Source: Rhodobacter capsulatus SB 1003 | GTDB taxonomy: Bacteria; Pseudomonadota; Alphaproteobacteria; Rhodobacterales; Rhodobacteraceae | DNA: 32,000 nucleotides | NCBI RefSeq assembly: GCF_000021865.1 | Contig: NC_014034.1 | Location: 1,710,001-1,742,000 of the forward strand | Reading direction: 5' to 3' | Shown here: piece after piece, positions 13,069 through 32,000 of the stretch | Layout: the number at the start of each line of letters is the position of its first letter | How positions within the stretch are numbered: position 1 is the first letter of the stretch | Notes under the pieces: model-generated | Databases searched by the model: none | What the model saw: only the letters and a program-made list of their open reading frames with translations | What the model was told of the DNA's origin: nothing | Made by a program: the position numbers and the translations under genes

Positions 13069-14052
13069 ATGACCGAAGTGAAATGGAAAGACCTGCCGCA
13101 AAATGCCAAGGCGACGCTTGGCATCATCGGCGGGGGGATCCTGCTGGCTCTGATCCTTGGCTTGATGTCGCCGGGTCGCACCGTGGTCACCGTGCCCGTT
13201 GATGAACTGCCGCCGGGTGTCCCGGCAACCCCGGCCGCCGCCGCCGCCGCTCCGGCTGCGGAAGCTGCCCCGGCCGCTGAGGCCCCGGCTGTCGAAGCTC
13301 CGGCCGCCGAGGCCCCGGCTGCGGAAGCTGCCCCGGCCGCTGAAGCCCCGGCTGCGGAAGCCGCTCCGGCTGTCGAAGCCCCGGCCGCTGAAGCTGCCCC
13401 GGCTGCGGAAGCTGCCCCGGCTGCGGAAGCTGCCCCGGCTGCGGAAGCTCCGGCCGCTGAAGCCCCGGCTGCGGAAGCTGCTCCGGCTGTCGAAGCTCCG
13501 GCCGCTGAAGCCCCGGCTGCGGAAGCTGCCCCGGCTGTCGAAGCTCCGGCCGCTGAAGCCCCGGCTGCGGAAGCTGCCCCGGCTGTCGAAGCTCCGGCCG
13601 CTGAAGCCCCGGCTGCGGAAGCTGCTCCGGCTGTCGAAGCTCCGGCCGCTGAAGCCCCGGCTGCGGAAGCTGCCCCGGCTGTCGAAGCTCCGGCCGCTGA
13701 AGCCCCGGCTGCGGAAGCTGCTCCGGCTGTCGAAGCTCCGGCCGCTGAAGCCCCGGCTGCGGAAGCCGCTCCGGCTGTCGAAGCTCCGGCCGCTGAAGCC
13801 CCGGCTGCGGAAGCCGCTCCGGCTGTCGAAGCTCCGGCCGCTGAAGCCCCGGCTGCGGAAGCTGCTCCGGCTGTCGAAGCTCCGGCCGCTGAAGCCCCGG
13901 CTGCGGAAGCTGCTCCGGCTGTCGAAGCTGCTCCGGTTGATCCGGTTGCCGCCGCGCTGGCCGCTGCCGAAGCTGCGAAACTCGCCGCCGAAGCCGCGAC
14001 CGCTGCCGCCGCCGCTGCCGAAGCTGCCGCCGCTGCCGCTGCCGCGAAATAA
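13069..14052 (+). CDS. membrane-anchored Ala/Pro/Glu repeat protein (APAAEAPAAEAAPAVE)n
   Basis: GGGGGGAAG RBS before ATG 13069. One N-terminal TM helix (LGIIGGGILLALILGLM). A strong terminator lies 24 nt after the stop. All differences between repeat units are synonymous only in this frame. Confidence 0.75.
   Translation: MTEVKWKDLPQNAKATLGIIGGGILLALILGLMSPGRTVVTVPVDELPPGVPATPAAAAAAPAAEAAPAAEAPAVEAPAAEAPAAEAAPAAEAPAAEAAPAVEAPAAEAAPAAEAAPAAEAAPAAEAPAAEAPAAEAAPAVEAPAAEAPAAEAAPAVEAPAAEAPAAEAAPAVEAPAAEAPAAEAAPAVEAPAAEAPAAEAAPAVEAPAAEAPAAEAAPAVEAPAAEAPAAEAAPAVEAPAAEAPAAEAAPAVEAPAAEAPAAEAAPAVEAPAAEAPAAEAAPAVEAAPVDPVAAALAAAEAAKLAAEAATAAAAAAEAAAAAAAAK
13447..13926 (+). repeat. tandem array of ten 48-bp units (in-frame, coding)
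   Basis: The unit is GCTCCGGCCGCTGAAGCCCCGGCTGCGGAAGCTGC[C/T]CCGGCTGTCGAA, with boundaries every 48 nt from 13447. Less regular related repeats span 13246-13446. Confidence 0.95.
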
Positions 14053-14075
14053 GCGCCGCAGGCCTGACATCGACA

Positions 14076-14107
14076 AACGCCGCCCTTCGGGGCGGCGTTT
14101 TCTTTTG
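14076..14107 (+). terminator. Rho-independent terminator of the repeat-protein gene
   Basis: AACGCCGCCC-TTCG-GGGCGGCGTT followed by TTCTTTTGG. Confidence 0.8.
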
Positions 14108-14122
14108 GTCCTCCGCCGCGCC

Positions 14123-14152
14123 AAAGAAAAAGGCCGCCCCGAAGGACGGCCC
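14123..14152 (-). terminator. Rho-independent terminator of fpr
   Basis: The minus strand reads GGGCCGTCC-TTCG-GGGCGGCC followed by TTTTTCTTTGG, 20 nt after the fpr stop. Confidence 0.75.
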
Positions 14153-14172
14153 GTTTCGAAATGCCGGAAGGC

Positions 14173-15063
14173 TCAGATGCCTTCGCCGACGAAGGCCTTT
14201 TCCACCACGAATTCGCGCGGCTCGGAATTGGCGCCCTCGCGCAGGCCGTAGCTTTCCAGAACCTTCATCACATCGACGTTGAAGGCAAGCGAGCCGCAGA
14301 CCATCGCCCGGTCGGTTTCCGGGTTCATCGGCGTGATCCCCAGATCCTCGAACACCTTGCCCGAGGCGAGGTTGTCGGTGATCCGGCCCATGTGATGGAA
14401 CTCTTCGCGCGTGGTGGTCGGGTAGTATTTCAGCTTGCCCTCGACCAGCTCGCCGATCAGCGGGTCCTCTTGCAGCGCCTCGACCAGCTGGCGGCCGTAT
14501 TCCAGCTCGGCCACCGTGCGGCAGGTGTGCATCATGATGACTTCGTCGAATTTCTCATAGGCCTCGGGCTCGCGCATCAGCGAGGCGAAAGGCGCAATCC
14601 CGGTGCCGGTGGCCAGGAACCACAGCCGTTTGCCGGGCAGAAGCGCGTCGATCACCAGCGTGCCGACGGGTTTCGGGCGCAAGATGATCTGCTCGCCCAC
14701 CTTGATGTGCTGCAGACGCGAGGTCAGCGGGCCATCGGGCACCTTGATCGAGTAGAATTCGAGCTCTTCGTCCCAGGCGGGCGAGGCGATCGAATAGGCG
14801 CGCATGATCGGCTTGCCGTTGTCATCCAGCAGCCCGATCATCACGAATTCGCCCGAGCGGAAGCGCAGCGTCTGCGGACGCGTGACGCGGAACGAAAACA
14901 GCGTGTCGGTCCAGTGCCGGACAGAGGTCACCGTCTGCGCATCGGGCAGGACTTTCGCGGGGGCAATCGGCGTGGTCTCGTTCACGGTCGTCTCGTCTTT
15001 GAGGCCCGAAGGGGCGATGAAGAAGCGCCGCACCGGCGCATGCGAAGGCGCGGCAGGAAACAT
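14173..15063 (-). CDS. fpr: ferredoxin--NADP(+) reductase (bacterial subclass I FPR)
   Basis: RAYSIAS (FAD binding), FLATGTGIAPF (NADP binding) and the C-terminal ...EKAFVGEGI are typical of Azotobacter/Rhodobacter-type FPR. The start is uncertain: TTG 15072, ATG 15063 (used here, no RBS) or GTG 14985. Confidence 0.9.
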   Translation of the reverse strand: MFPAAPSHAPVRRFFIAPSGLKDETTVNETTPIAPAKVLPDAQTVTSVRHWTDTLFSFRVTRPQTLRFRSGEFVMIGLLDDNGKPIMRAYSIASPAWDEELEFYSIKVPDGPLTSRLQHIKVGEQIILRPKPVGTLVIDALLPGKRLWFLATGTGIAPFASLMREPEAYEKFDEVIMMHTCRTVAELEYGRQLVEALQEDPLIGELVEGKLKYYPTTTREEFHHMGRITDNLASGKVFEDLGITPMNPETDRAMVCGSLAFNVDVMKVLESYGLREGANSEPREFVVEKAFVGEGI

Positions 15064-15075
15064 GCGCCGCAATTA

Positions 15076-15119
15076 CCACAAAAGGCGGCGGCGTGCCATG
15101 ACTATGGGCAGATGCCGCC
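15076..15119 (-). terminator. candidate terminator at the end of the cys operon
   Basis: On the minus strand, GGCGGC...TGCCCAT-AGTC-ATGGCA...GCCGCC forms an interrupted hairpin followed by TTTTGTGG, 23 nt after the DUF934 stop. Confidence 0.45.
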
Positions 15120-19164: not shown

Positions 19165-19626
19165 ATGGCGGTCCGGTTGGACGAGATGGATCGGAAGATC
19201 CTGTTTCAGATGCAGGAAGACGCGAGCCAGTCGCTCGACGAGATCGCGCGCAAGGTGGGCTCGTCGAAGACCCCGGTGTGGAACCGGATCCGCAAGATGA
19301 AGGATCTGGGCGTGATCGGGCGGCAGACGGTGCTGCTCGACGCCGAGGCGCTGGGGCTGGAGGCCTGTTTCTTCGTGCTGATCCGGACCTCGGAACACGA
19401 AGCCGACTGGCAGCGCCGGTTTCTGGCGACGCTGCGCGCGCGCCCCGAGGTGCTGGAAGCGCATCGGCTGGCGGGCGATATCGACTATATCCTGAAGGTG
19501 CGGGTGAAGAACGCGCGCGCCTATGATCTGTTTTATCAGGCGCTGATCTCCGAGGTGAAGATCTACAACGTCACAGCACTTCTGAGCATGGAAGAGATCA
19601 AGTCGACGACGATTCTGCCGGTGTGA
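19165..19626 (+). CDS. lrp: Lrp/AsnC family transcriptional regulator
   Basis: 153 aa. It has an N-terminal HTH (LDEMDRKILFQMQEDASQSLDEIARKVGSSKTPVWNRIRKM) and an AsnC-type ligand domain. It is divergent from the cys operon. Confidence 0.9.
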   Translation: MAVRLDEMDRKILFQMQEDASQSLDEIARKVGSSKTPVWNRIRKMKDLGVIGRQTVLLDAEALGLEACFFVLIRTSEHEADWQRRFLATLRARPEVLEAHRLAGDIDYILKVRVKNARAYDLFYQALISEVKIYNVTALLSMEEIKSTTILPV

Positions 19627-19632
19627 CCCGGT

Positions 19633-19769
19633 CGGGCCGGGCAGGGGGGCGCTGCCCCCTCTGGCCTCGCGGCCATTCACCCCCCGGGATATTTGGAGCA
19701 AGATGAAAAACAACCGGAGCTGATTTCATCTTGCTCCAAATATCCCGGGGGTCTGGGGGCAGCGCCCCC
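19633..19769. repeat. composite palindromic intergenic element, copy A
   Basis: Perfect 28-bp arms at 19681-19708 and 19724-19751 with a 15-nt loop. Outer GGGGGGCGCTGCCCCC (19644-19659) and GGGGGCAGCGCCCCC (19755-19769). Confidence 0.9.
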
Positions 19770-19778
19770 AGCCTCGCC

Positions 19779-20522
19779 TCAGGCCGCGTCGAGCGCGCTC
19801 AGGATCGCGCCGAAATCGGCGGCCTTGAGCGAAGCGCCGCCCACCAGCGCGCCATCGACATTCGAGGTGGCAAAGATCTCGGTCGCGTTCGAGGGTTTCA
19901 CCGAGCCGCCGTAAAGAAGCCGCATGCCTTCGCCCTCGGCGCCGAAGCGCGCGACCAGTTCCGCGCGCAGGAAATCATGCACTTCGGCGATCTGTTCCAG
20001 CGTCGGCGTGCGGCCGGTGCCGATCGCCCAGACGGGTTCGTAGGCGATGACAGTATTCGCCGCGGTGGCGCCGTCCGGAACCGAGCCCGCCAGCTGCGCG
20101 CCGACCAGTGCCAGCGTCTCGCCCGCATCGCGCTGCGCTTCGGTCTCGCCAACGCAGATCACCGCGACCAGACCCGCGGCGCGGGCAGCGGTGGCCTTGG
20201 CGCAAACCATCTCCGAGCTTTCGCCATGATCGGCGCGGCGTTCGGAATGGCCGAGGATCACATGGGAGGCGCCGCAATCGGCCAGCATTTCGGCCGCGAT
20301 GTCACCGGTATGCGCGCCCGCGGCCTTCATGTGGCAATCCTGCCCGCCGACCGCGATCCTGCCCGCCGCCGTCGCCACCATCGCCGCGACCAGCGTCGCG
20401 GGCGGGCACAGCAGAACTTCGGATTTCGGATCGGGATGCGCCGCGATCAGCGCCGCCACTTCGGCCAAGCTTGCCTTGGTGCCGTTCATCTTCCAGTTGC
20501 CCGCGGCCAATTTTCTGCGCAT
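19779..20522 (-). CDS. tpiA: triosephosphate isomerase
   Basis: 247 aa with [17 protein letters not shown] and [11 protein letters not shown] signatures. Confidence 0.95.
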
Positions 20523-20591
20523 TCCTGCCTCCTTGCCAAAGTCGGGCGCAGATTAGGCAGGCGCGCGGCCCGTGCAAGCAAGAAATGGGCC

Positions 20592-20951
20592 TCAGCCCGC
20601 GGGCGCGTCGCGGAACTTCACCGATTCGCCGCAGCCGCAGCTTTCGACCACATTCGGGTTGCGGAACTTGAAGCCCGATTCGAGCATCGTTTCCTCGTAG
20701 TCGATTTCGGTGCCCAGCAGGAACATCTGGGCCAGCGGCGCGATCAGCACGCGGGCCGGGCCTTCCTCGACGACGATATCCATCGGATCGGCCTCGGAGG
20801 CGATTTCCATCGTGTATTCCATGCCCGCACAGCCGCCCTTCTTGACGCCGATGCGGAACCCGGCGGCGCCTTCGCGCGCCATCAGCTCGGCGATCTGGGC
20901 GACGGCCGCGGGGGTCAGGGTGACGGGGGGCTTGCCGGGGAGTGCGAACAT
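20592..20951 (-). CDS. erpA: iron-sulfur cluster insertion protein (HesB/IscA/ErpA family)
   Basis: Start at ATG 20951 after AAGGAG; the track ORF extends to 21155 into the upstream gene. 119 aa with GGCAGMEY and the C-terminal CGCGESV motif. Confidence 0.9.
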   Translation of the reverse strand: MFALPGKPPVTLTPAAVAQIAELMAREGAAGFRIGVKKGGCAGMEYTMEIASEADPMDIVVEEGPARVLIAPLAQMFLLGTEIDYEETMLESGFKFRNPNVVESCGCGESVKFRDAPAG

Positions 20952-20971
20952 GGGGGGCTCCTTTCGCCTCA

Positions 20972-21000
20972 AGATAGGCGTGCGGGGGCGGTCCGGCAAG
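20972..21000 (-). promoter_or_regulatory. candidate RpoH-type promoter CTTG-N18-CCTATCT upstream of erpA
   Basis: On the minus strand: CTTG (21000-20997), an 18-nt spacer, CCTATCT (20978-20972), 20 nt before ATG 20951. Same geometry as 509-537. Confidence 0.35.
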
Positions 21001-21021
21001 CGGCCGGGCCGCCCGGAGAGA

Positions 21022-22095
21022 TCAGGGCAGGGCGGGATAGTCGGTGTAGCCCTCGGCGCCGCCGCCATACATCTGCGCCAGCCGCAGCGGGTTCCATTCG
21101 GCGTTCCGTTCCAGCCGCGCCACCAGATCGGGGTTGGCGATGAAGGGCTTGCCAAAGGCCACCGCGTCGGCCGTGCCCGTTGTCACCGCGGCCAGCGCGC
21201 TGTCACGATCGTAGCCGTTATTGGCGACATAGGGCGCGCGGATCGCCTCGCGCAGCGCTTCCAGCTCGCCCGCGGGCCAGTCGCGCGGGCCACCGGTCTG
21301 ACCCTCGACCATATGGACAAAGGCCAGCGGCCGGTCGTTCAGCGCGGCGATGGCGGCGCCGAAGAGCGCGGGCGTGTCGCTGTCGAGGCCGATATTGTTG
21401 GCGTTCGAGAAGGGCGAGAGCCGCACGCCGACCCGCCCCGGGCCCCAGACCGCGACGCAGGCATCGACGGCGCCCAAAAGGAAGCGGATGCGGTTTTCGA
21501 CCGGGCCGCCCCAGCCGTCGCTGCGCTTGTTCGACGTGTCACGCAGGAACTGGTCGATCAGATAGCCGTTCGCGCCATGCACCTCGACCCCGTCGAAGCC
21601 CGCCTGTTTCGCCAGCTGCGCCGCATGGCCGTAATCGAGGAAGGTGCGTTCGATGTCTTCCTCGGTCATCTCGCGCGGCATGCCCGTTTCGACGAAGCCC
21701 TTGCCGTCAAAGGTTTTCGAAGCCGCCGACAGCGCCGAGGGGGCGACCGGCGTCAGCCCCTCGATGATCGTCTCATGCGAGACGCGCCCGACATGCCAAA
21801 GCTGGATCACGATCTTGCCGCCTTCGGCATGCACCGCGTCGGTGACCCGGGCCCAGGCCGCCGCCTGCGCCTCGCTGTGGATGCCCGGCGTCCAGGCATA
21901 GCCCTGCCCGACAGGCGAGATCTGCGCGCCCTCGGTGACGATCAGCCCGGCGGTCGCGCGCTGGCGGTAATATTCCACCGTCAGATCGGTGGGCATCCGG
22001 TCGGGGGCGCGGTTGCGGGTGAGCGGCGCCATCACGACGCGGTTGGCGATGGAAATTTCCCCGAGATGGCCGGGGGAAAACAGGGTGTCGGTCAT
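21022..22095 (-). CDS. NADH:flavin oxidoreductase / alkene reductase (Old Yellow Enzyme family)
   Basis: 357 aa. GGAGGG RBS. VMAPLTRNRA, GLIVTEGAQISP, LWHVGRVSH and GFDGVEVHGANGYLIDQF are OYE/NemA-type motifs. Confidence 0.9.
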   Translation of the reverse strand: MTDTLFSPGHLGEISIANRVVMAPLTRNRAPDRMPTDLTVEYYRQRATAGLIVTEGAQISPVGQGYAWTPGIHSEAQAAAWARVTDAVHAEGGKIVIQLWHVGRVSHETIIEGLTPVAPSALSAASKTFDGKGFVETGMPREMTEEDIERTFLDYGHAAQLAKQAGFDGVEVHGANGYLIDQFLRDTSNKRSDGWGGPVENRIRFLLGAVDACVAVWGPGRVGVRLSPFSNANNIGLDSDTPALFGAAIAALNDRPLAFVHMVEGQTGGPRDWPAGELEALREAIRAPYVANNGYDRDSALAAVTTGTADAVAFGKPFIANPDLVARLERNAEWNPLRLAQMYGGGAEGYTDYPALP

Positions 22096-22210
22096 CTGAC
22101 CCTCCGTTCAAGAAGACCCCCACCGTAAAGGATCGGCGCAAGGGGACAAGGGCGCTGCCGCACAGGGGGGCCGTCCGCTCCGCACAGCCCGGCGTGCCGC
22201 CCCCGCAAGC

Positions 22211-22576
22211 TCACATGAAGCCGAGTTCGAGCCGGGCCTCGTCCGACATCATGTCCATGCCCCAGGCCGGGTCGAAGGTCATCTCGATCTCGCAGCGCTG
22301 CACGCCTTCGACCGCCTCGACTGCGTCTTGCAGCCATTGCGGCATCTCGCCCGCCACCGGGCAGCCCGGGGCGGTCAGCGTCATGGTGATGGCGACGACG
22401 CCGTCCTCGCCGATCCGGATCGTGTAGATCAGACCCAGATCGAAGATGTTGACCGGAATTTCCGGGTCGAAGACGGTGCGGCAGGCCTCGACCACCGAGG
22501 CGTAAAGCGGGTGCTCGATATCGGACGGGGCAATCAGAGGGGCCCCTTCGGGGAGCGCGTGTTCGGTGCTGGTCAT
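22211..22576 (-). CDS. SUF-type Fe-S assembly protein SufT-like (DUF59/MIP18)
   Basis: 121 aa. DPEIPVNIFDLGLIY and TLTAPGCPVAG are DUF59 signatures. Confidence 0.85.
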   Translation of the reverse strand: MTSTEHALPEGAPLIAPSDIEHPLYASVVEACRTVFDPEIPVNIFDLGLIYTIRIGEDGVVAITMTLTAPGCPVAGEMPQWLQDAVEAVEGVQRCEIEMTFDPAWGMDMMSDEARLELGFM

Positions 22577-22718
22577 GACTCTCTCGGGCTATTTCCTAGA
22601 GTTTATATAGGGTATCGGGGGGAGAGGTAAAGGCCGTCGGTGCGGGGCGGAAAGCCGCGTGCCAAGCAGGGTTTCGCCGCGGCGGGGCCGCGGCGACCGG
22701 GCGGGCGGGGCCCCCGCA

Positions 22719-22890
22719 CCCCCGGCGTATTTGCGCCAAGAAGAAACAAGCGGGACCAGGCCCCCCTGCAGCCGCATGCCGTCCGCGTCAACAGGCAAGG
22801 GCCCCGCTTTTCCTAGGCAAAATACGCCCTTCTTTCTTTTCGGGGGGGCGGGGGGTGAAGCCCCCCGTCCGCCTCGGGCTTGCCCGAGGC
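22719..22890. repeat. diverged relative (copy D) of the palindromic element family
   Basis: CCCCCGGCGTATTTGCGCCAAGAAGAAACAAGCGGGACC (22719-22757) pairs imperfectly with GGCCCCGCTTTTCCTAGGCAAAATACGCC (22800-22828). The head resembles the CCCCCGGGATATTTGGAGCAAGATGAAA core. GC mini-hairpins at 22850-22866 and 22871-22890. Confidence 0.4.
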
Positions 22891-22978
22891 GAAAGCTTCC
22901 CCCCGTGAAAACCTTGCCTGCGCGCGTCGCTTTCCCTTTCGGCCCGGCGCTGCTAAACGCGCGCCAAAGGAGCGCCCG

Positions 22979-24106
22979 ATGACCCAGTTCAGCTTCACCC
23001 TCTCCGCCACCGACGGCGCCGCCCGCACCGGCGTCATCCACACCCCGCGCGGCGAGATCCGCACCCCCGCCTTCATGCCTGTCGGCACTGCCGCCACGGT
23101 CAAGGCGATGCTGCCCGAAAGCGTGCGCGCCACCGGCGCCGACATCCTTTTGGGCAACACCTATCACCTGATGCTGCGCCCCACGGCCGAGCGCATCGCG
23201 CGGCTGGGCGGGTTGCACAAGTTCATGAACTGGGAGCGCCCGATCCTGACCGACTCGGGCGGGTTTCAGGTGATGAGCCTTGCTTCCGTGCGCAAGCTGA
23301 CCGAGGAGGGCGTGACCTTTTCCAGCCATATCGACGGCTCGAAACACCATCTGTCGCCCGAACGCTCGATGGAGATCCAGAAGCTTCTGGGCTCGGACAT
23401 CGTCATGGCCTTTGACGAATGCCCGGCGCTGCCCGCCGATGACGCGACGGTGGCGAAATCGATGCGGCTCTCGATGCGATGGGCGCAACGCTCGCGTGAT
23501 GCCTTCGGCGACCGGCCCGGCCATGCGCTGTTCGGCATCATGCAGGGCGGTGTCACCCGCGATCTGCGCGAGGAATCGGCCACGAAACTGAAAGAGATCG
23601 GCTTTGACGGCTATGCGATCGGCGGCCTCGCCGTGGGCGAGGGGCAGGAGGCGATGTTCTCGGTCCTCGATTACGCGCCCGGCTTCCTGCCCGCGGACAA
23701 GCCGCGCTATCTGATGGGCGTGGGCAAGCCCGACGACATCGTTGGCGCGGTCGCGCGCGGCATCGACATGATGGATTGCGTGCTGCCCTCGCGCTCCGGC
23801 CGGACCGGGCAGGCCTGGACCCGGCGCGGCCAGATCAACATCAAGAACGCCCGCCACATGGACGATCCGCGCCCGCTGGACGAAGCCTGCAGCTGCCCGG
23901 CCTGCCGCAATTACTCCCGCGCCTATCTGCACCATGTCTTCAAGGCGCAGGAGATGATCTCGGGCATGCTCCTGACCTGGCACAACCTGCATTACTATCA
24001 GGATCTTATGGCAGGCCTGCGCGCGGCGATCGCGGCGGGGCAGCTTTCGGCCTTCGTCGCAGACTTCCATGCCCAGCGCGCGGCGGGGGATATCGACCCG
24101 CTCTAA
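22979..24106 (+). CDS. tgt: queuine tRNA-ribosyltransferase
   Basis: Start at ATG 22979 after AAAGGAG. 375 aa with [24 protein letters not shown] and the zinc motif CSCPAC...H. Confidence 0.95.
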
Positions 24107-24747
24107 TGCCCGGCGATCAGGATGACGGCGGCATAATGCGTTGCGGCCGCCGCGATCACATGGCCATGCCAGATCGCGCGGGAAAACGGCATCCGCTTGA
24201 GCTTGTAGAACACCGTGCCCAGCAGATAGACCGCGCCGCCGATGCCCAGCAGGATCAGCACGGCGAGCGGCAGCCGCTCGATCAGCGGCCAGATCGCGAC
24301 CAGACCCAGAAGCCCCATCACAAGGTAAAGCAGGAACCCGGCCTTCTCGGCGGCATGAAAGAAGCCCAGCTTCATCACCATGCCGATCAAGGCCAGCGTC
24401 CAGATCGTTACGGTCAGCGCGATGCCCACCTTGCCACCCAGCCCGATCAGCGCCATCGGCGTGTAGGTGCCCGCAATCAAAAGATAAATCGCCGCATGAT
24501 CGAAGCGGCGCAGCACCGCGCGGGCGGGCGCGTAAAGCGTCAGGTTGTAGCCCGCCGAAAACCCGAAAGAGGCGATCAGCCCGACCGCATAGACGACCAG
24601 CGGCCAGATCTTCGGCCCAAGCCCCGCCATCGCCGCCCAGACCATCAGCGCCGAAACCGCGGCCACGGCAAAGGTGACGCCCAGCACATGCATCACGCCA
24701 TCGGCGAAATGCTCGCGGAACGAATGGGCCAGCTCATGTCGTGTCAT
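24103..24747 (-). CDS. hemolysin III / PAQR family membrane protein
   Basis: Start at ATG 24747, with GGAGG 6 nt upstream; the track ORF runs on through palindromic element B. 214 aa, 7 TM helices, motifs [14 protein letters not shown] and [12 protein letters not shown]. Confidence 0.9.
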
Positions 24748-24819
24748 CGAAACCTCCGGGGAATGGCGCATCCTAGCAGCCGGGGCGGGCAAGCCAAAGG
24801 CTGACGCTGCGTCAGCCGA

Positions 24820-24939
24820 CGGGCCGGGCAGGGGGGCGCTGCCCCCGTCCTGCGGACTCCCCCCGGGATATTTATGGCAAGATGAAACTGCGGCCTTCAT
24901 CTTGCCATAAATATCCCGGGGTGCGGGGCAGAGCCCCGC
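24820..24939. repeat. composite palindromic intergenic element, copy B
   Basis: Perfect 26-bp arms at 24861-24886 and 24896-24921 with a 9-nt loop. The left 27 nt (24820-24846) are identical to copy A (19633-19659). The right outer hairpin is GCGGGGCAGAGCCCCGC. Confidence 0.9.
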
Positions 24940-25623
24940 TCAACCGAAGATGACAAGATCCGCGGCCCGGTTTTCGCTGATGAGCAAGCGCCCGTTCGGC
25001 AGGTCGTTTTCCTCGGTCCGGCGCGTGGCTTCCGCCAGCGGCAGATCGGACCAGCGCGCCATCAGGCGGCGGCGCAGTTCGGCCTCGGGCACGGCCAGCC
25101 GGATCGACAGATCGAAAAGCGGCGCCAGATCGCGCCAGCCCGGGCGGGTGAGGAGCAGGTAATTGCCCTCGACCAGGATCACCTGCGCCGTGGCGGGGAT
25201 CACCGCGCCCGCAGGCACGACGGCATCGGCTGTGCGATCGAAGCCGGGCACCGGGCAATCTTTGGTGGCGGTCCTGACCTGCGCCAGGCAGGCGGCAAGG
25301 CCCGCGACATCGAAAGTGTCGGGGTTGCCCTTGACCGCGCGCAGGCCCCGCGCATCCAGCCAGTCATTGTCGCGATGAAACCCGTCCATCGGCAGGATCG
25401 CGGCGCGGCCGGGGCTGCGGGCGTTCAACTGCGCCGCCAGCTCCGCCGCCAGATGCGACTTGCCCGAGCCGGGCGCGCCCACCAGCGCCACCAGCACGCG
25501 GTCTTCGCCCAACTGCCCGATGTGACCGGCCAGATCGGCGCGGTCCACCCGCAGCTCGGAGCCCATGAAGGCGCCGACATCGCCCATCGGGCCGTTGGAA
25601 TCGCCCAGCCAGAATTCCGCCAT
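24940..25623 (-). CDS. P-loop nucleoside/nucleotide kinase family protein (uridine kinase/PRK-like)
   Basis: Start at ATG 25623, a 1-nt overlap with the upstream stop (TGATG). 227 aa. Walker A is GAPGSGKS. The substrate is not assignable from sequence. Confidence 0.75.
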   Translation of the reverse strand: MAEFWLGDSNGPMGDVGAFMGSELRVDRADLAGHIGQLGEDRVLVALVGAPGSGKSHLAAELAAQLNARSPGRAAILPMDGFHRDNDWLDARGLRAVKGNPDTFDVAGLAACLAQVRTATKDCPVPGFDRTADAVVPAGAVIPATAQVILVEGNYLLLTRPGWRDLAPLFDLSIRLAVPEAELRRRLMARWSDLPLAEATRRTEENDLPNGRLLISENRAADLVIFG

Positions 25624-26240
25624 CAGCCCATCGCCGCGACAAGACGGCCCAGCGCCGCCACCGGGTCTTCGGCGGTCCAGATTTCCTCGCCCACGGCGAA
25701 GAAATCGGTGACCGGGGCGAAGTCGCGCACCAGATCCTCGGTCAGCGCGCCCTCGGCGACGACCGGAACCTCGATCACCTCGGACCACCACTGGAAGAGG
25801 TCGCGCTCGGCCCGGGCGCCGGTGCCAAGGCCGGTTTCGCCCACCGGACCGAAGCAGACGTAATCCGCCCCGGCCTCGCCCGCGGTCATGCCGTCATGCT
25901 GCGAGGCGGCGCAAAAGGCGCCGACGATCGCATCCTGGCCCAGCTCCTTGCGGGCATAGCGCACGGTGCGGGCGCCATCGGTCAGATGCACGCCGTCAAG
26001 CCCGTGCCGTTCCACCAGCGCGATGTGGTTCTCGATCACCAGCGCGACATCGAATTCATGCGCCACCTGACGCACCGCATCGGCCGCGCGCATCACCTTG
26101 TCCTCGTCCTTCGTCGCCAGACCGAGACGGATGCAGGCCACCTCCTGCGCGCCGAGAACCCTGGCCAGAAGCTGCGGGAAAACGTCCAGATCGAAGCTGG
26201 GCGGGGTGGCCAGATAAAGCTGCGGGCGATCCTCGGACAT
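25623..26240 (-). CDS. thiamine-phosphate synthase-like (TMP-TENI fold) protein
   Basis: 205 aa. AAGGAG lies 5 nt before ATG 26240. LYLATP, GLDGVHL and GADYVCFGPV resemble ThiE/TenI. The canonical substrate-binding residues were not all recognised. Confidence 0.65.
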   Translation of the reverse strand: MSEDRPQLYLATPPSFDLDVFPQLLARVLGAQEVACIRLGLATKDEDKVMRAADAVRQVAHEFDVALVIENHIALVERHGLDGVHLTDGARTVRYARKELGQDAIVGAFCAASQHDGMTAGEAGADYVCFGPVGETGLGTGARAERDLFQWWSEVIEVPVVAEGALTEDLVRDFAPVTDFFAVGEEIWTAEDPVAALGRLVAAMG

Positions 26241-26321
26241 GACGGCTCCTTTCGGGTTTCGCGCCTTCTAGCGCAGGCGGCCCCGCCTTGCCAGCGGCTT
26301 TGCGCTTCTGTATCGGGGGGC

Positions 26322-27059
26322 ATGACTTCGCATCCGACCCCCGTCTTCATCCTGATCCGTCCGCAGATGGGCGAGAATATCGGTGCCGCCGCCCGGGCGA
26401 TGCTGAATTTTGCGCTCTCGACGCTGCGGCTGGTTGATCCGCGCGACGGCTGGCCGAACCCGAAGGCGGTGGCCATGGCCTCGGGCGCGGCGGGCAAGGT
26501 GCTCGATCATGCTGGGGTCTTTCCCACCACGGCCGAGGCGATTGCCGATTGCGATTTCGTCTTTGCCACCACCGCGCGCGGGCGCGAGCTGACAAAGCCC
26601 ATTTACACCCCCGAAGCCGCGATGGCCGAGGCGCGGGCGCGGATCGCCGCCGGGCAGCGGGTGGGGGTGATGTTCGGCCCCGAGCGCACCGGGCTGGAAA
26701 ATGACGACATCATCCGCGCGAATGCGATCATCACCGTGCCGGTGAACCCCGAGTTCTTCTCGCTCAATCTGGCGCAGGCGGTGCTGCTGACGGCCTACGA
26801 ATTCGCCCGTCAGGGCAGCGAGGCCCCGGCGATCGACCCCGGTCTGGCGGGGGCCGAGATGGCCAATGCGCTCGAAATCGAGAAGCTGGGCGATCATTAC
26901 GAGGAGCGGCTGGATCAGGCCGGGTTCTTCTTTCCCGCGGGCAAGGCGCCGATGATGAAGCGCAATCTGCGCAACATGTGGAGCCGGTTCGGCCTGACGC
27001 GGGCGGATGTGCAGACGCTGCACGGGATGTTGCGGCAGCTTTTGCGCCAGCGGGATTGA
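26322..27059 (+). CDS. SpoU/TrmH-family RNA 2'-O-methyltransferase, TrmJ-like
   Basis: Start at ATG 26322 after GGGGGG. 245 aa with ENIGAAARAM, FATTARGR, MFGPERTGL and LNLAQAV motifs. Confidence 0.85.
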   Translation: MTSHPTPVFILIRPQMGENIGAAARAMLNFALSTLRLVDPRDGWPNPKAVAMASGAAGKVLDHAGVFPTTAEAIADCDFVFATTARGRELTKPIYTPEAAMAEARARIAAGQRVGVMFGPERTGLENDDIIRANAIITVPVNPEFFSLNLAQAVLLTAYEFARQGSEAPAIDPGLAGAEMANALEIEKLGDHYEERLDQAGFFFPAGKAPMMKRNLRNMWSRFGLTRADVQTLHGMLRQLLRQRD

Positions 27060-27334
27060 GGTCGACGGATCTGACCGAGGCCATCGCCGAGGTCACGCGC
27101 GACATTGGCCCCATGACCGCCGGGGGCCCAAAGGCCCTCGGCCAGCGCCCGCCCCGCCCATGGCGGGCGCTTCTCGCCCGCCGGGGCAGGCGCCGGCCTC
27201 TGTTGCGCTTGATCGAAACGGTCTTGCCATGGCCGTTGCGCAGCGGGCGGGAAACGCGGATCGCGTTTCCTGATCCGCCCGACCCACGCAAGGGCAGACT
27301 TGCGCCGCCCGCGCGCGCCCGTCATCCTGCGCCG

Positions 27335-28084
27335 ATGCGACACTTTCTGATGCGATCGCTTCTGGCGCTGGGGCTGGGCGGCCTGCTGGGCCTTGTGGCG
27401 CTGCTCGCGCTCCTGCCCGCGCCGCGCGCCGCCCTTTGTCCCGGCTGTTTCGGGCTGGTGCGCGCGACCGACACGCTCTGGGTCGAGGCGGCGATGCCCG
27501 CCCCCGACCGGCTGCGCCTGATCGCCCAGATCGCCGCGGCGAAGGCGCAGGTGGCCCGGGCCCTCGGCCCGACCCGGGGCCGGTTGCGCCTTCTGGCCTG
27601 CCAGACCGCCGCCTGCGATCGCCGTCTGGGCGGGCGGGGGGCGGCCGCGGTGACCTATTCCTTTGGCCCCGTTGCCGTCGTGCGTCTCTCGCCGCGCGGG
27701 CTTTCGACGACGATCCTGACGCATGAGCTGACCCATGTCGCGCTGCATGCCCGGATGGGCCCCGTCGGGCAGCTGGCCGACCGCCTGCCCGCCTGGGCCG
27801 ACGAGGGGCTGGCGGTGATCGTCTCGGACGATCCGCGCTATCTGGCCCCGGGGTCCGGCCTGCGGCGCTGCCGCAAGACCCCGCGTCCCGTGCTGCCCGA
27901 AACCGCCCGCGACTGGCTGCATCTGGCCGCGCAAGAGCGCGACATTTACGCCGAAGCGGCCTGTGCCATGCTGGGCTGGATGGCGGAAAATGACGGCTGG
28001 ACGGGGGTTTGGGCGGTGATCGAGGGCAGGCGCACGCTTCATCCGCCCGCCAATCCCCTTGCCCCCGCCCGTGCCGCGCCCTAG
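27335..28084 (+). CDS. exported putative zinc-metalloprotease-like protein (HExxH)
   Basis: Start at ATG 27335 gives the signal peptide MRHFLMRSLLALGLGGLLGLVALLALLPAPRAA, followed by CPGC. It has a THELTHV (HExxH) motif. No RBS was seen, so the start is uncertain. 249 aa. Confidence 0.6.
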   Translation: MRHFLMRSLLALGLGGLLGLVALLALLPAPRAALCPGCFGLVRATDTLWVEAAMPAPDRLRLIAQIAAAKAQVARALGPTRGRLRLLACQTAACDRRLGGRGAAAVTYSFGPVAVVRLSPRGLSTTILTHELTHVALHARMGPVGQLADRLPAWADEGLAVIVSDDPRYLAPGSGLRRCRKTPRPVLPETARDWLHLAAQERDIYAEAACAMLGWMAENDGWTGVWAVIEGRRTLHPPANPLAPARAAP

Positions 28085-28112
28085 TGTCGCGCCAAAGCGA
28101 CAGGAGGCCCGC

Positions 28113-29297
28113 ATGGGGATGAAACCCGCCAAGAACCGCTCGCGCGCGATCTTCGAGGAGGTGGGCGTCGAGACCCCGAAACAGATGCCCGTGGCGCCGA
28201 AAGGCGGCATGATCGACGCGCGGCCGAAAGGCGCGCGCAAGGCGCTGCTGGTCTGGATGGTCTCGCTGATCGTGCTGGCCGTGCTGCAGCTGGGGCTGGA
28301 TGCGACGCCGGGCTTCGGCATTGCGGAACTCGATCTGCTGCAGCCCTACACGGGCTTGGCGCTTTTCGCGGTCTGGGCGCTGGGGGCGCTGGGTCTTGCC
28401 CTCAGCCGCCGCCTGCCGCCGGGCTGGGGGCTGCGCGTCGCCGGTCTGGGGCTGGGCTGCCTGCTGCTCGCGGCCTCGGACCCGGCGCCGATCGCCAAGC
28501 TTTCCAAGGCCTTGGCGCCCGAACCCGCGGCCGCGGTGCTGCCGCAGACGGGCGCGCTGCCGCCGCTGCAGCTTTTGCCCGCAACGCCGCCGACGCCCGC
28601 GCCCGTGGCGGCCCCCCCGACCCCGCAGGAACGGGTGGCGCAGGCCGCCGATCTGGTCACGGCACAGATCGACCGGGCGCAGACGACCCTTGGCGCCGCG
28701 CCCTTCGCCACGCTGCGCCTCGGCCTCGCCTTTGCGCTTCTGGGCTTTGCCTTCTGGTATGCGCTCTTGGCTGCCCGGACCGAGGCGGCGCTGATCGCGG
28801 CCCGGCGTCAGGCGGAACCGGGGCTGGTCGGGCTGGCGACGGGGCTGATGCATCTGAGCTTCCTGCAGCTGCTGGTGGGCGGGCTGGTGACCGGGATTGG
28901 CGCGGGGGCGGTCTTCACCGACTGGCCGTTGATGGGCGGCGTCTGGCTGCCGCCCGACATGCTTTCGCTTGAACCGATCTGGCGCAATGCGCTGGAAAAT
29001 CAGGCGCTTTTGCAGTTCAGCCACCGGGCGCTCGGCTATCTGCTGCTGGCTCTTGCGGCTTTTGCGCTGATCCGCTCGCGCCGGTCGGTGCATGCGGTGA
29101 CCCGCATGGCCTTTGGTCTGGCGGCGATCTGGGTGCTTTTGCAAGCCGTTCTGGGCGTCGTCACGCTGCTGCATGGCGATCCGCTGGCGCTGCGGCTGGC
29201 GCATCTGGGCGGGGCGCTGGTGCTCTGGCTCTTTCTCATCCGCGCGCGCTTCCTCGCGCGCTATCCGCGCGTGCAATCGATCCGGGGGATCAAATGA
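28113..29297 (+). CDS. COX15/CtaA (heme A synthase) homolog with atypical N-terminal half
   Basis: AGGAGG (28102-28107) lies before ATG 28113. 394 aa with about 8 TM helices. The C-terminal half matches COX15 (FTDWPLMGG, ALLQFSHR, LAHLGGA). The N-terminal half lacks the expected His and TRLT-SGLS motifs and carries a Pro-rich insert. Confidence 0.7.
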   Translation: MGMKPAKNRSRAIFEEVGVETPKQMPVAPKGGMIDARPKGARKALLVWMVSLIVLAVLQLGLDATPGFGIAELDLLQPYTGLALFAVWALGALGLALSRRLPPGWGLRVAGLGLGCLLLAASDPAPIAKLSKALAPEPAAAVLPQTGALPPLQLLPATPPTPAPVAAPPTPQERVAQAADLVTAQIDRAQTTLGAAPFATLRLGLAFALLGFAFWYALLAARTEAALIAARRQAEPGLVGLATGLMHLSFLQLLVGGLVTGIGAGAVFTDWPLMGGVWLPPDMLSLEPIWRNALENQALLQFSHRALGYLLLALAAFALIRSRRSVHAVTRMAFGLAAIWVLLQAVLGVVTLLHGDPLALRLAHLGGALVLWLFLIRARFLARYPRVQSIRGIK

Positions 29298-30763
29298 CAG
29301 CTCTGGCCGACCTGAAAGCCTACCTTCGCGAAACCGAGGCGCTGACCTGTGTGGCCGAGCGTCTGGGCTGGGATCAGGAAACGATGATGCCGCGCGGCGC
29401 CGCCGAGCAGCGGGCCGAGGAACTGGCGGCGATGGAATCGGTGCTGCATGCGCGGCGCACCGATCCGCGGCTGGAGGACTGGCTGGCCCGGGCCGAGGCG
29501 ACGACCGAGGCCGAGGCCCGGCTGCTTGACCTGGCCGGGCGCAATTACAACCGCGCGACGCGGATCCCGGCGCGGCTCGCCACGGAACTGGCCCGCCTCA
29601 CCTCGCTCGCCCAGGGCGTCTGGGCCGAGGCCCGCGCGGCCGAGGCCCCGGCCGCCTTCCTGCCGACGCTCGCGCAGATGGTGGCGCTGAAGCGCGAGGA
29701 GGCCGCCTGCCTGTCGGAAGGCGATCTTTACGATGCGCTGCTCGATGATTACGAACCCGGCGCGACGCATCGCGTGCTTGGCGCGATGTTCGACCGGATG
29801 CGCCCGCGTCTGGTCAGCCTGCGCGAAAAGGTGCTGGGGGCCGCGCATCAGCCGCCCGCGCTTGACCATGTCTTCCCCGAGGCGACGCAGCTGCGCATCG
29901 CGCGGATCTGCGCCTCGGCCTTCGGATATGACTGGACTCTGGGGCGGCTCGATCTGGTGGTGCATCCGTTCTGCTCGGGCTCGGGGCGGGATGTGCGCAT
30001 CACCACGCGGGTCTGCGAAAGCGATCCGTTCAACTGCCTGTATTCCACCATCCACGAGGTCGGCCATGCCTGCTACGAACAGGGGATCGCGGCGGAGCAT
30101 GCGCTGACGCCGCTTGGTCGCGGCGTTTCGATGGGGGTGCATGAAAGCCAGAGCCGGATCTATGAAAACCAGCTTGGCCGCTCGGCGCCCTTCACCGGCT
30201 GGCTCTATCAACGGATGGTCGATGCCTTTGGCGATTTCGGCGTCGCGGACGCGCAGGCCTTCCATGCGGTGGTGAACCGGGTCAACCCGGGCTTTATCCG
30301 CACGGAAGCGGACGAGCTGCATTACAACCTGCATGTGATGCTGCGCTTCGATCTGGAACGGCAGCTGATCACCGGCAAGCTCGAGGTCGCGGATCTGGAA
30401 GCGGCCTGGAATGTCCGGTTCCTGGCCGATTTCGGCGTCGCGGTCGAGAAACCCTCGCAGGGCTTCCTGCAGGATGTGCATTGGGCGGGCGGGCTTTTTG
30501 GCTATTTCCCGACCTATACGCTGGGCAATGTCTATGCGGGCTGCCTGAACCGGGCGATGCGCGCGGCAGTGCCCGGGATCGACGCGGCGCTGGCCGAGGG
30601 CTCGGCGAAACCCGCCACCGACTGGCTGCGCGAAAACCTGCAACGCCATGGCGGGCTGCGCCCCCCGCGCGAGACGATCGTGACCGCCTGCGGGTTCGAG
30701 CCGACGGAAGAACCGCTTCTGGACTATCTCGAAAGCAAATACGCCGCGATCTACCGGCTTTGA
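29294..30763 (+). CDS. carboxypeptidase Taq-type (M32) metallopeptidase
   Basis: 489 aa with HPF, HEVGHACYEQG (HExxH), GVHESQSR and IRTEADELHY signatures. Its ATG overlaps the upstream stop (ATGA, 29294-29297). Confidence 0.95.
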   Translation: MTALADLKAYLRETEALTCVAERLGWDQETMMPRGAAEQRAEELAAMESVLHARRTDPRLEDWLARAEATTEAEARLLDLAGRNYNRATRIPARLATELARLTSLAQGVWAEARAAEAPAAFLPTLAQMVALKREEAACLSEGDLYDALLDDYEPGATHRVLGAMFDRMRPRLVSLREKVLGAAHQPPALDHVFPEATQLRIARICASAFGYDWTLGRLDLVVHPFCSGSGRDVRITTRVCESDPFNCLYSTIHEVGHACYEQGIAAEHALTPLGRGVSMGVHESQSRIYENQLGRSAPFTGWLYQRMVDAFGDFGVADAQAFHAVVNRVNPGFIRTEADELHYNLHVMLRFDLERQLITGKLEVADLEAAWNVRFLADFGVAVEKPSQGFLQDVHWAGGLFGYFPTYTLGNVYAGCLNRAMRAAVPGIDAALAEGSAKPATDWLRENLQRHGGLRPPRETIVTACGFEPTEEPLLDYLESKYAAIYRL

Positions 30764-30767
30764 GGGC

Positions 30768-30898
30768 GAGGGGCGCTGCCCCCCGCGAGGCGATGCCTCG
30801 GCCCCCCGGGATATTTCGAGCAAGATGAAAGGCATCCGGTTTCATCTTGCTTCAAATACCTCGGGGGGAGTCCCGCAGGGACGGGGGGCAGCGCCCCC
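30768..30898. repeat. composite palindromic intergenic element, copy C (opposite orientation to copy B)
   Basis: Imperfect 29-bp arms at 30802-30830 and 30840-30868 with a 9-nt loop. Outer GGGGCGCTGCCCCCC (30770-30784) and GGGGGGCAGCGCCCCC (30883-30898). The spacer AGTCCCGCAGGGAC is the reverse complement of the copy B spacer. Confidence 0.85.
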
Positions 30899-32000
30899 TA
30901 CGCCATTGACGTGAAGCGGTTCACCGGCGTCTCGATCACGCTTTTTGACGGCGGCGTCTGGGCGAAGCGCTCGGCCAGGGTCAGGGGTCCCGCGGTGATG
31001 CGGAAGTAATCATAGGCACCGGGGCGGTCGAAGGCGCACAGATACTGGAAATGCAACCGGAAGAAGCGCCAGCGCAATTGCTTCCAGCGCGCGGGCGAGA
31101 GGGTTTGCGTGAAGGCGGCCGACAGGATCAGCGGCTGGTGTTGATCGGCGGGGCCGACGCCCGAGACCTTGACCGGATCGCACAGCGCAAAGGCGCAGCC
31201 GTCGCCCGGGGCGGTGACATCGACCCAGGTCAGTTCGGTCCGTGCGCACAGATAGGCCAGATCGCCGCGCAGCCGTTTCGCCTTTGGCAGGAAGCTGACC
31301 ATCGGCACGACATGGCCCAGCGACAGGAAACCCAGCCGCGGCCCCGTTGCGGGCACCCGGCCCGCGCGGATCAGATCGGCCAGAACCGAGATCGCCAGAT
31401 GCGCGCCCGAGGAATGGCCGACCACCAGCACCTCGTCCCAATCCTCGGTCAGCGCCTGCGCGATCGTGTCGCCAAAGGCGGCCATCCGGGTTTCCAGCGC
31501 CGCCGGATTGGCGCCGCCCCAGCGCGCGGTAAAGGCGTAATCATGCATCAGGTAATAGGCGTAAAACCTGCCGTCGTGCTTGCGAAACCAGCGCAGCACC
31601 GCCCAGGTCACCCCGGCGCAGAGCGCAAGGCCAAGCCCCCAATCAAAGCGGAAATCGGGCAGCGGCCAGAGGATCAGCCCGGCCAGCGCCGCCCCCGCGC
31701 CAAGGCCCGCCAGCGCCTGCAGGATCAGCGCCACGATCGGGTAAAGCGCCGCGATCACCGGCCCCTTGCGCAGCCGCATCAGCCGAAAGAGCGCGCCTGA
31801 GCCGATATAGGCCCAGGCGGTGCGCAGAAGCTGCAGATAGGTCGCGGGGATCGAGGCCGCCATGCTGTCGCGCACGATCTCGGCCCAGATCAGCACCTCG
31901 ACATCGGTCTCGACCGGCTGCCCGTCCTGGGTCGCGCTGACATGCCAGCCATAGGGGCCGCCCGCGCGCTTGGGCGCCAGCGCCAGCGCATAGCCCGAGA
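30898..32000 (-). CDS. membrane-associated alpha/beta-hydrolase-like protein (GHSSG nucleophile elbow), 5'-partial at window edge
   Basis: The track ORF starts at a GTG (31896), but the frame stays open with no stop up to position 31998, so the gene probably begins beyond the window. It has TM segments (PVIAALYPIVALILQALAGLGAGAALAGLILW) and VVGHSSGAH. Confidence 0.7.
   Translation of the reverse strand, partial: SGYALALAPKRAGGPYGWHVSATQDGQPVETDVEVLIWAEIVRDSMAASIPATYLQLLRTAWAYIGSGALFRLMRLRKGPVIAALYPIVALILQALAGLGAGAALAGLILWPLPDFRFDWGLGLALCAGVTWAVLRWFRKHDGRFYAYYLMHDYAFTARWGGANPAALETRMAAFGDTIAQALTEDWDEVLVVGHSSGAHLAISVLADLIRAGRVPATGPRLGFLSLGHVVPMVSFLPKAKRLRGDLAYLCARTELTWVDVTAPGDGCAFALCDPVKVSGVGPADQHQPLILSAAFTQTLSPARWKQLRWRFFRLHFQYLCAFDRPGAYDYFRITAGPLTLAERFAQTPPSKSVIETPVNRFTSMA

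Follow-up and report, generated by a model that had tools for sequence, protein, structure and literature searches.

An apparently undescribed modular palindromic repeat, probably of the REP/BIME/REPIN kind, in Rhodobacter capsulatus and the variable box within its arms

Repetitive extragenic palindromic (REP) sequences, bacterial interspersed mosaic elements (BIMEs) and REP doublets forming hairpins (REPINs), which are described together with RAYT/TnpAREP proteins from E. coli, Pseudomonas and Stenotrophomonas, are short multi-copy extragenic repeats built as mosaics of palindromic units and linker motifs. They occur as inverted doublets, in which two inverse units split by a variable linker are able to fold as a long hairpin, as well as singlets, and they form lineage-specific subfamilies with a long vertical persistence. 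Changes that look compensatory across the hairpin are reported as common in REPINs (PMC3116915), and in E. coli REPs a stem mismatch can be a required feature and not a defect (PMC8266576). Correia (NEMIS) and ERIC/IRU elements are imperfect palindromes of 100-150 bp that resemble miniature inverted-repeat transposable elements (MITEs). We describe here a repeat sharing the listed traits of the REP group, with doublets mostly head-to-head and also tail-to-tail, in a stretch of 32,000 nucleotides of Rhodobacter capsulatus SB 1003 (hereafter the window; NC_014034.1, positions 1,710,001 to 1,742,000), and we focus on its copy at window positions 24820-24939, named copy B, which a previous sequence-only reading had presented as a palindrome whose 4-nt box is conserved for its base pairing. 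We consider it probable, short of confident, that copy B is a member of a modular mosaic repeat of the REP/BIME/REPIN kind, in which a protein would recognise the two halves of each arm, the box between them would be a free spacer and symmetric boxes would arise by arm-to-arm copying.

The family itself appears to be an undescribed bacterial interspersed palindromic repeat. No prior description was found in the searchable literature for the arm sequence, for REP in Rhodobacter or for interspersed repeats in Rhodobacter and Paracoccus. Rfam 15 gave no match at the gathering score, a relaxed E-value bringing only sub-threshold look-alikes of eukaryotic microRNA precursors, and none of the 11 partial matches in the plasmid collection carried an annotation. 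Copy B and copies A and C of the window are composed as follows.

24820-24846, + strand: left outer module of copy B, CGGGCCGGGCA, then a G-run/C-run hairpin, GGGGGGCGCTGCCCCC, at 24831-24846
24847-24859, + strand: small second hairpin of copy B, GTCCTGCGGAC, plus TC; its stem sequence varies among copies
24860-24886, + strand: left arm of copy B, with a C-run, helix half H1 GGGATATTT (24865-24873), box ATGG (24874-24877) and helix half H2 CAAGATGAA (24878-24886)
24887-24895, no strand assigned: loop of copy B, ACTGCGGCC, locus-specific
24896-24921, - strand: right arm of copy B, with TTCATCTTG (24896-24904), box CCAT (24905-24908), AAATATCCC (24909-24917) and GGGG
24922-24939, - strand: right outer module of copy B, hairpin GCGGGGC-AGA-GCCCCGC, of a type that differs from the left outer module; it abuts the stop codon at 24940
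19633-19775, no strand assigned: copy A, arms 19681-19708 and 19724-19751, box GGAG/CTCC, between the convergent genes of an AsnC-type regulator and tpiA
30766-30898, no strand assigned: copy C, arms 30802-30830 and 30840-30868, between the convergent genes of an M32 carboxypeptidase and a 404-aa protein

The geometry of copy B had been read correctly. Its segments 24861-24886 and 24896-24921 are 100% complementary over 26 nt and make a perfect inverted repeat around a 9-nt loop, the 27 nt of its left module (24820-24846) are identical to 19633-19659 in copy A, and the element lies at a gene 3' end, its right edge touching the stop codon of an open reading frame (ORF) for a P-loop/kinase-like protein and its left edge standing 73 nt from the start of the HlyIII-family gene at 24747. 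Copies A, B and C all fill spacers at gene 3' ends. The view that the box is free in primary sequence and that the element has a strong capacity to fold into a hairpin or cruciform also holds, the 120-nt element having fold z-scores of -7.6 (+ strand) and -9.4 (- strand) relative to shuffled sequences. The arm pattern has seven matches in the window against 0.01 expected, which excludes chance.

The arms of copy A form a perfect inverted repeat of 28 nt, and its box differs from that of copy B (GGAG/CTCC vs ATGG/CCAT) at three positions, each mirrored on the partner arm. In copy C, the arms (with a core at 30808-30829 and 30841-30862) are 86% complementary and the box is uncompensated (CGAG vs CTTC); its right arm is the flank variant AAATACCTC, of the GAGGTATTT type, so that the flanks are not invariant, contrary to what had been claimed from copies A and B. 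The two outer hairpins of copies A and C pair together and make a composite palindrome of the whole 133-143 nt; in perfectly symmetric copies too, the symmetry ends at the C-run/G-run and the outer modules are unlike. The loop of copy B is kept among R. capsulatus strains (GGCCGCAG/GGCCGCAA), other loci having different loops, and about 13 nt at the left edge of the copy (24822-24834, GGCCGGGCAGGGG) are also found in related species that lack arms. A second small hairpin was observed in many copies between the G5C-loop-GC5 hairpin and the arm, for example at 19662-19673, 24847-24857, 30787-30801 and in a Paenirhodobacter spacer (L247); its stem varies by copy and is always self-complementary within a conserved frame, TCT ... 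ATTCA or G ... TC, the counterparts of the copy B hairpin being GGCCTCGCGGCC in copy A, CGAGGCGATGCCTCG in copy C and TGGCGCGCAGCGCCA in L247.

The repeat is widespread among the relatives of R. capsulatus. A scan of one genome per species with the pattern GGGATATTTNNNNCAAGATGAA, for which a match of one arm was sufficient, returned at least 120 loci carrying the arm motif, nearly all in Rhodobacteraceae/Paracoccaceae (Paracoccus, Gemmobacter, Cypionkella, Tabrizicola, Rhodobacter, Phaeovulum, Roseovarius, Thioclava and others among the matches listed), and a metagenome scan, in which one arm plus the inner 9 nt of the other were fixed and both boxes left free, returned 87 loci. The basic unit comprises an optional G5C-loop-GC5 hairpin, an optional variable small hairpin, a C-run and a 22-nt arm, GGGATATTT-NNN-S-CAAGATGAA. 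Three arrangements occur upstream of the arm: GCCTCCGGCG alone; the G5C-loop-GC5 hairpin, a short linker and the C-run; or this same hairpin, the second small hairpin with its copy-specific stem and the C-run. The G5C-loop-GC5 hairpin precedes arms in 140 units of other genomes, with the loop GCT in 91 of them.

Single arms predominate among the genome matches listed, 133 of the 173 arms standing outside head-to-head pairs (20 such pairs, and 5 tail-to-tail), and many of these singles are perfect consensus arms adjoining coding sequence. Head-to-head pairs carry unique loops of 6-41 nt, with lengths clustering at 9-11 nt and 17-20 nt. According to crude gene calls, single arms are tandem-sense in 20 cases, tandem-antisense in 22, convergent in 17 and divergent in 5; units are intergenic, found in either orientation and rare between divergent genes. 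Several Logan short-read contigs that carry tpiA or the M32 peptidase gene (L222, L223, L229-L233) terminate within the repeat or just past it, that of L231 in a chimeric-looking arm. Contig breaks inside the element are frequent, in line with its being a multi-copy repeat.

Pairing had been proposed as the conserved property of the box, with co-variation of the two boxes expected across a larger set of copies. Most boxes proved instead to be non-complementary: outside the window, they are complementary in 2 of 17 pairs among the genome matches listed (non-complementary in 15), and in 13 of the 50 metagenome pairs having both arms perfect at the 18 flank positions (non-complementary in 37). 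When 96 distinct head-to-head elements were aligned, the outer helix (GGGATATTT) was 97.6% paired and the inner helix (CAAGATGAA) 99.3%, near-perfect values that are partly built in by the search patterns, and box columns 1, 2 and 3 were unpaired in 51, 49 and 33 elements, respectively. Column 4 pairs in 94 of the 96 and truly covaries (G-C in 50, C-G in 42); the G or C found there is a marker of lineage or subfamily. Box positions 1 to 3 form a freely varying spacer, usually an unpaired internal loop in the hairpin, and the two 9-nt arm halves are kept as primary sequence. Flank variants of the arm do exist (GAGGTATTT, CAAGATAAA, CAAGGTGAA) and are usually mirrored on both arms; subfamilies with different inner halves are still self-complementary (ATCGTTGAA/TTCAACGAT in L165, AGAGAGGAT/ATCCTCTCT in L195).

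Sample ERZ1645187, one of whose contigs shows synteny with the window at about 82% identity, bears on the difference between copies A and B. The commonest boxes there are GGAG (10 of 48 arms) and ATGG (7 of 48), and they are paired as GGAG/GGAG, as ATGG/ATGG and, three times, as GGAG/ATGG. Since both are common alleles, copies A and B differ as paralogous alleles do: the mirrored differences reported between them are real, and their interpretation as three substitutions compensated in place is not upheld. Frequent non-complementarity of the boxes in a larger set is also the very outcome that the earlier reading had named as refuting it.

Identical boxes are over-represented, with 13 observed against 3.5 expected among the 50 perfect-flank pairs and 6 against 1.9 within ERZ1645187 (P=0.006), and rare boxes (CTGG, TGGG, TCGG, GCAG) are paired with themselves too. 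Box similarity is bimodal, three, two, one and zero matches out of three being found in 13, 7, 13 and 17 pairs against 3.5, 12.1, 20.7 and 13.7 expected; pairs one step from identity are thus not in excess, which argues against a gradual decay from perfect palindromes as well as against gradual compensation. Identical boxes accompany perfect flanks (13/50 vs 1/24, P=0.028) and a longer outward symmetric tract (median 5 vs 1 nt, P=0.04). Some force that makes boxes symmetric does exist; pairing is nonetheless not the conserved property of the box.

Orthologous loci were compared in 20-kb regions of ten R. capsulatus strains, where allele counts are few and not phylogenetically independent. The HlyIII, TpiA and M32 peptidase proteins are sequence-identical in the R. 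capsulatus assemblies, in the same gene order. The strains form three groups: L234-237, L239 and L240, which differ by 0-3% and make up the window-like clade; L238, L241 and L243, a second clade at a distance of about 7%; and L242 alone. Copy B has the box ATGG/CCAT in the window-like clade. In L242 (L242/L215), it reads GTGG/CCAC with GATAAA/TTTATC, that is two mirrored differences from the window and none unmirrored, with a different loop; in the second clade it reads GAGGTATTT-GCAG / CCCG-AAATACCTC, the flank changes being mirrored (GAGGT/ACCTC) and three box positions unpaired. Copy A has at least four alleles: GGAG/GGAG; GGAG/CGGG with a 41-nt loop; GCAC or GCGC against GTCC with CAAGGTGAA on both arms; and GAGGT-TGAG / GAGGT-GTGG. 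Its short loops are homologous between alleles, indicating changes at one locus. The 41-nt loop, seen in the copy A orthologue of L237 and L239 (around 15014-15098), holds a terminator-like hairpin, AAAGGGCGACCGATCCGGGCGCCCTTTT, which suggests that a terminator already present between convergent genes can come to be flanked by arms.

Copy C shows five alleles, none with a complementary box, and is gone from L240 (CP198951.1, 3962-3984, orthologue of window 30763-30898), where one GC hairpin is left with CCCT microhomology at the junction; this site is a deletion or an empty site. Over loci A, B and C, complementary boxes are found in 3 of 12 alleles. The arm variants GAGGTATTT and CAAGATAAA, the C-type CAAGGTGAA and the box CGGG recur across loci, and loops stay locus-specific. 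A genome-wide concerted switch of arm variants within a strain was hinted at by L241 and contradicted by L238 of the same clade, and recombination between strains explains the pattern equally.

Further away, the AsnC-tpiA spacer of L190, whose flanking DNA is about 82% identical, has both arms conserved at 18 of 18 positions and the boxes TCAG/GGGG. In the kinase-HlyIII spacer of R. aestuarii and Rhodobacter sp. TJ_12 (L245, L246), nothing but a GC hairpin and CCCCTGCCCGGCC is present. Elements are thus subject to turnover, and several loci have arm variants in common.

The composite palindrome of about 120-145 nt lying in intergenic spacers and often at gene 3' ends, the long RNA hairpin that it would form if co-transcribed and its presence/absence polymorphism between strains recall the Correia and ERIC elements. 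Unlike in these, no terminal inverted repeats with a target-site duplication could be defined here, the separable units also occur alone and the mid-stem box is hypervariable. Concerning MITE features, the L240 junction shows only the CCCT microhomology, the arm-less species keep the GC hairpin plus CCCCTGCCCGGCC, and no clear duplication was found. Arms as the ends of an insertion sequence (IS) of about 2.1 kb were also considered and rejected for the two spaced arm pairs examined (L039, L070), the enclosed sets of ORFs being dissimilar and made of ordinary-looking genes.

Differences also separate the family from the REP group. The conserved 22-nt arm is not itself palindromic and is more conserved than the hairpin units, singlets outnumber doublets among the matches listed, whereas doublets dominate in SBW25 (PMC3116915), and no RAYT was found within 1.99 Mb of sampled repeat loci. 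GTAG precedes the GC hairpin in only 5 of 140 units, an A standing before the G-run in 94 of 140, so that a GTAG-type REP identity of these hairpins is unsupported. The IS200/IS605 family, with its subterminal hairpins and guide tetranucleotides, similarly has a short variable tetranucleotide beside conserved hairpins, but no Y1 transposase was seen in the 1.99 Mb of repeat loci (tblastn with E. coli TnpAREP). A role of the box as an IS608-like guide was rejected, since, over 126 single arms, it correlates beyond the shuffled maximum with none of the 4-mers in the 70 nt before the arm or the 56 nt after it. The same fate befell an intrinsic (Rho-independent) terminator: the sequence after the stems is G/C-rich with no U-tract, and a terminator scan of 19400-31100 lists no element.

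Could the hairpin itself be what is selected, be it a DNA cruciform or an RNA that serves as an RNase III site, as a terminator or as a decay barrier in the 3' untranslated region, with truly compensatory changes keeping the entire stem paired, box included? Its predicted stability (-82 to -114 kcal/mol, z -7.6 to -11.6), the location of copies A, B and C at gene 3' ends, the excess of complementary boxes, the mirrored changes of allele L242, the self-complementarity of the L165 and L195 subfamilies despite different inner halves, and the compensatory-looking changes reported as common across REPIN hairpins and their spacers (PMC3116915) would all fit. However, of the 96 elements about half leave box position 1 unpaired, about half position 2 and about a third position 3, non-identical boxes appear unrelated rather than one step short of pairing, about three quarters of the arms among the genome matches listed have no partner, and single units show no strand bias relative to the flanking genes. 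The missing U-tract, the silence of the terminator scan and the lack of an Rfam family match point the same way, and one protein binding both arms would equally predict mirrored arm changes. Selection for box pairing is possible in a subset of copies and cannot be general, and we regard the selected hairpin as quite improbable. Even less credit is given to chance, by which copies A and B would each join two independently acquired arms sharing a common box allele: it accords with GGAG and ATGG being the commonest boxes of ERZ1645187, with the resemblance of most head-to-head pairs to random combinations and with the unlike outer modules on the two sides of copies A and B, but it fails to account for identical boxes being three to four times more frequent than under random pairing, also within one sample and rare boxes included, and homotypic boxes in two of the three window copies are improbable at the expected rate of about 8%.

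An unlikely, though somewhat better, alternative is that elements are born perfect, the head-to-head palindrome being a REPIN- or MITE-like replicative unit made or moved via a folded single-strand intermediate that gives perfectly symmetric arms, with heterotypic boxes and single arms as products of later one-arm replacement, decay and deletion. Symmetric elements do form a discrete class tied to perfect arms, deletions leaving one GC hairpin are seen (L240; L245, L246), loop lengths are clustered, and REPINs offer a precedent (PMC3116915). Against this, the loop is unique to each locus, so the whole palindrome is not what is copied between places; even perfect copies have unlike outer modules left and right; pairs are fewer than singles, many of which abut coding sequence with no room for a decayed partner; and pairs one mismatch from identity are not in excess.

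The modular reading that we favour would have the arm act as the bipartite recognition site of a putative trans-acting protein, be it a host DNA-binding protein or a transposase/recombinase, that would make no contact with the box, a spacer. Arms would be exchanged or overwritten among copies, their spread and homogenisation proceeding via that protein or by inter-copy exchange. In the identical-box minority, including copies A and B, one arm would have been copied from the other, likely by template switching or short-tract conversion within the quasipalindrome, and stepwise selection for pairing would not be the source of the symmetric boxes. Template switching homogenises the arms of inverted repeats and yields apparent compensatory changes (PMC8794818, PMC7202029), and quasipalindrome correction similarly produces multi-base, exactly mirrored changes in one event, homogenising arms without selection (PMC8794818, PMC7202029, PMC8604942); mirroring several bases at once fits the discrete class of symmetric boxes. 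Unlike our repeat, quasipalindrome correction is a mutational process and not an element family, and the spacer inversion that is its frequent by-product is not demonstrable here.

Several observations weigh against this modular reading. No trans-acting protein was identified, a tblastn search with E. coli TnpAREP (checked against 4ER8) giving nothing better than E=0.02 in the 1.99 Mb of repeat loci, and none of the strain and species loci compared offered a clean empty site bearing a target duplication. A loop inversion between alleles, which marks some template-switch events, scored 3 inverted against 0 direct on 11 nt, which is too weak to show it. The excess of identical boxes would also result from selection for pairing in a subset of copies, which would equally be expected to give the mirrored changes of L242. 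The conservation of both arms at AsnC-tpiA is a single orthologous case, and at the kinase-HlyIII spacer the full pair of Paenirhodobacter (L247) has a decayed right arm, while L248 has a single unit with a decayed inner half. Finally, all collection scans demanded a consensus arm, so that genomes dominated by other arm variants are under-sampled, and the pairing of the two helices in the 96-element alignment owes something to the same patterns.

Two further features of the window touch the same spacers or a related family.

24799-24817, - strand: palindrome GGCTGACGCAGCGTCAGCC (also given as CTGACGCAGCGTCAG), then TTTGG, upstream of HlyIII/TrhA and outside the repeat
22707-22866, no strand assigned: sister-family copy (GGCGTATTT-N4-CAAGAAGAA), head-to-head and decayed, whose loop is about 60 nt long and which has a GC hairpin at either end

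The palindrome at 24799-24817 is conserved, with or without the repeat, in R. lacus, R. aestuarii and Rhodobacter sp. TJ_12, with a looser version in Paenirhodobacter; it is ancestral spacer sequence, separate from the repeat, and could be an operator or a terminator. The sister-family copy sits in the divergent spacer between an FeS-assembly gene and tgt, and intact pairs of that family are present in L154, L155 and L203. The HlyIII-tgt spacer of L248 (2140-2315) contains two direct copies of a different repeat of about 75 nt, GCATGTTGCTCAAAAGTGGGAACCGGTTTTGAGCTTC.CGAACATGCGAAATCA.

Elsewhere in the window, an ORF of 327 aa (13069-14052, + strand) has a hydrophobic segment at its N terminus, after which some 13 tandem repeats of 48 nt encode (EAPAAEAPAAEAAPAV)n; these DNA repeats dominate the output of the repeat finder (families D1-D3). 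Just past it, at 14070-14159, two back-to-back hairpins with A/T runs (AAACGCCGCCCTTCGGGGCGGCGTTTTC... / ...GGCCGCCCCGAAGGACGGCC) make up an imperfect inverted repeat of 39 nt and resemble a pair of terminators, one for each direction. The stretches 2670-3448 and 3782-4563 share several collinear direct repeats that are 72-80% identical and always about 1112 nt apart, which suggests a tandem pair of paralogous genes.

R. capsulatus serves as a model in the study of photosynthesis, nitrogen fixation and gene transfer agents, and the present repeat family fills its 3' intergenic spacers and breaks short-read assemblies. Its alleles are hyper-polymorphic between strains and could be mistaken for selected RNA structures; mirrored base differences between two paralogous palindromes are not evidence of compensatory evolution, and a census of copies and orthologous comparisons are needed, which in this case reveal a free spacer box and a discrete class of symmetrised copies. 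More tentatively, the arm may be the bipartite site of a putative Rhodobacteraceae-wide protein, either a chromosome-organising factor or a domesticated transposase/recombinase, by which hundreds of intergenic sites would be maintained and rewritten where they stand. If this doubtful idea were true, such a protein would explain the perfect arm halves at an orthologous locus despite about 18% divergence of the flanks, the return of the same arm variants from locus to locus in one strain lineage and the presence, in the middle of the stem, of a box kept unpaired on purpose as an internal loop, and it would represent a new type of host-repeat partnership, similar to that of REPINs and RAYTs.

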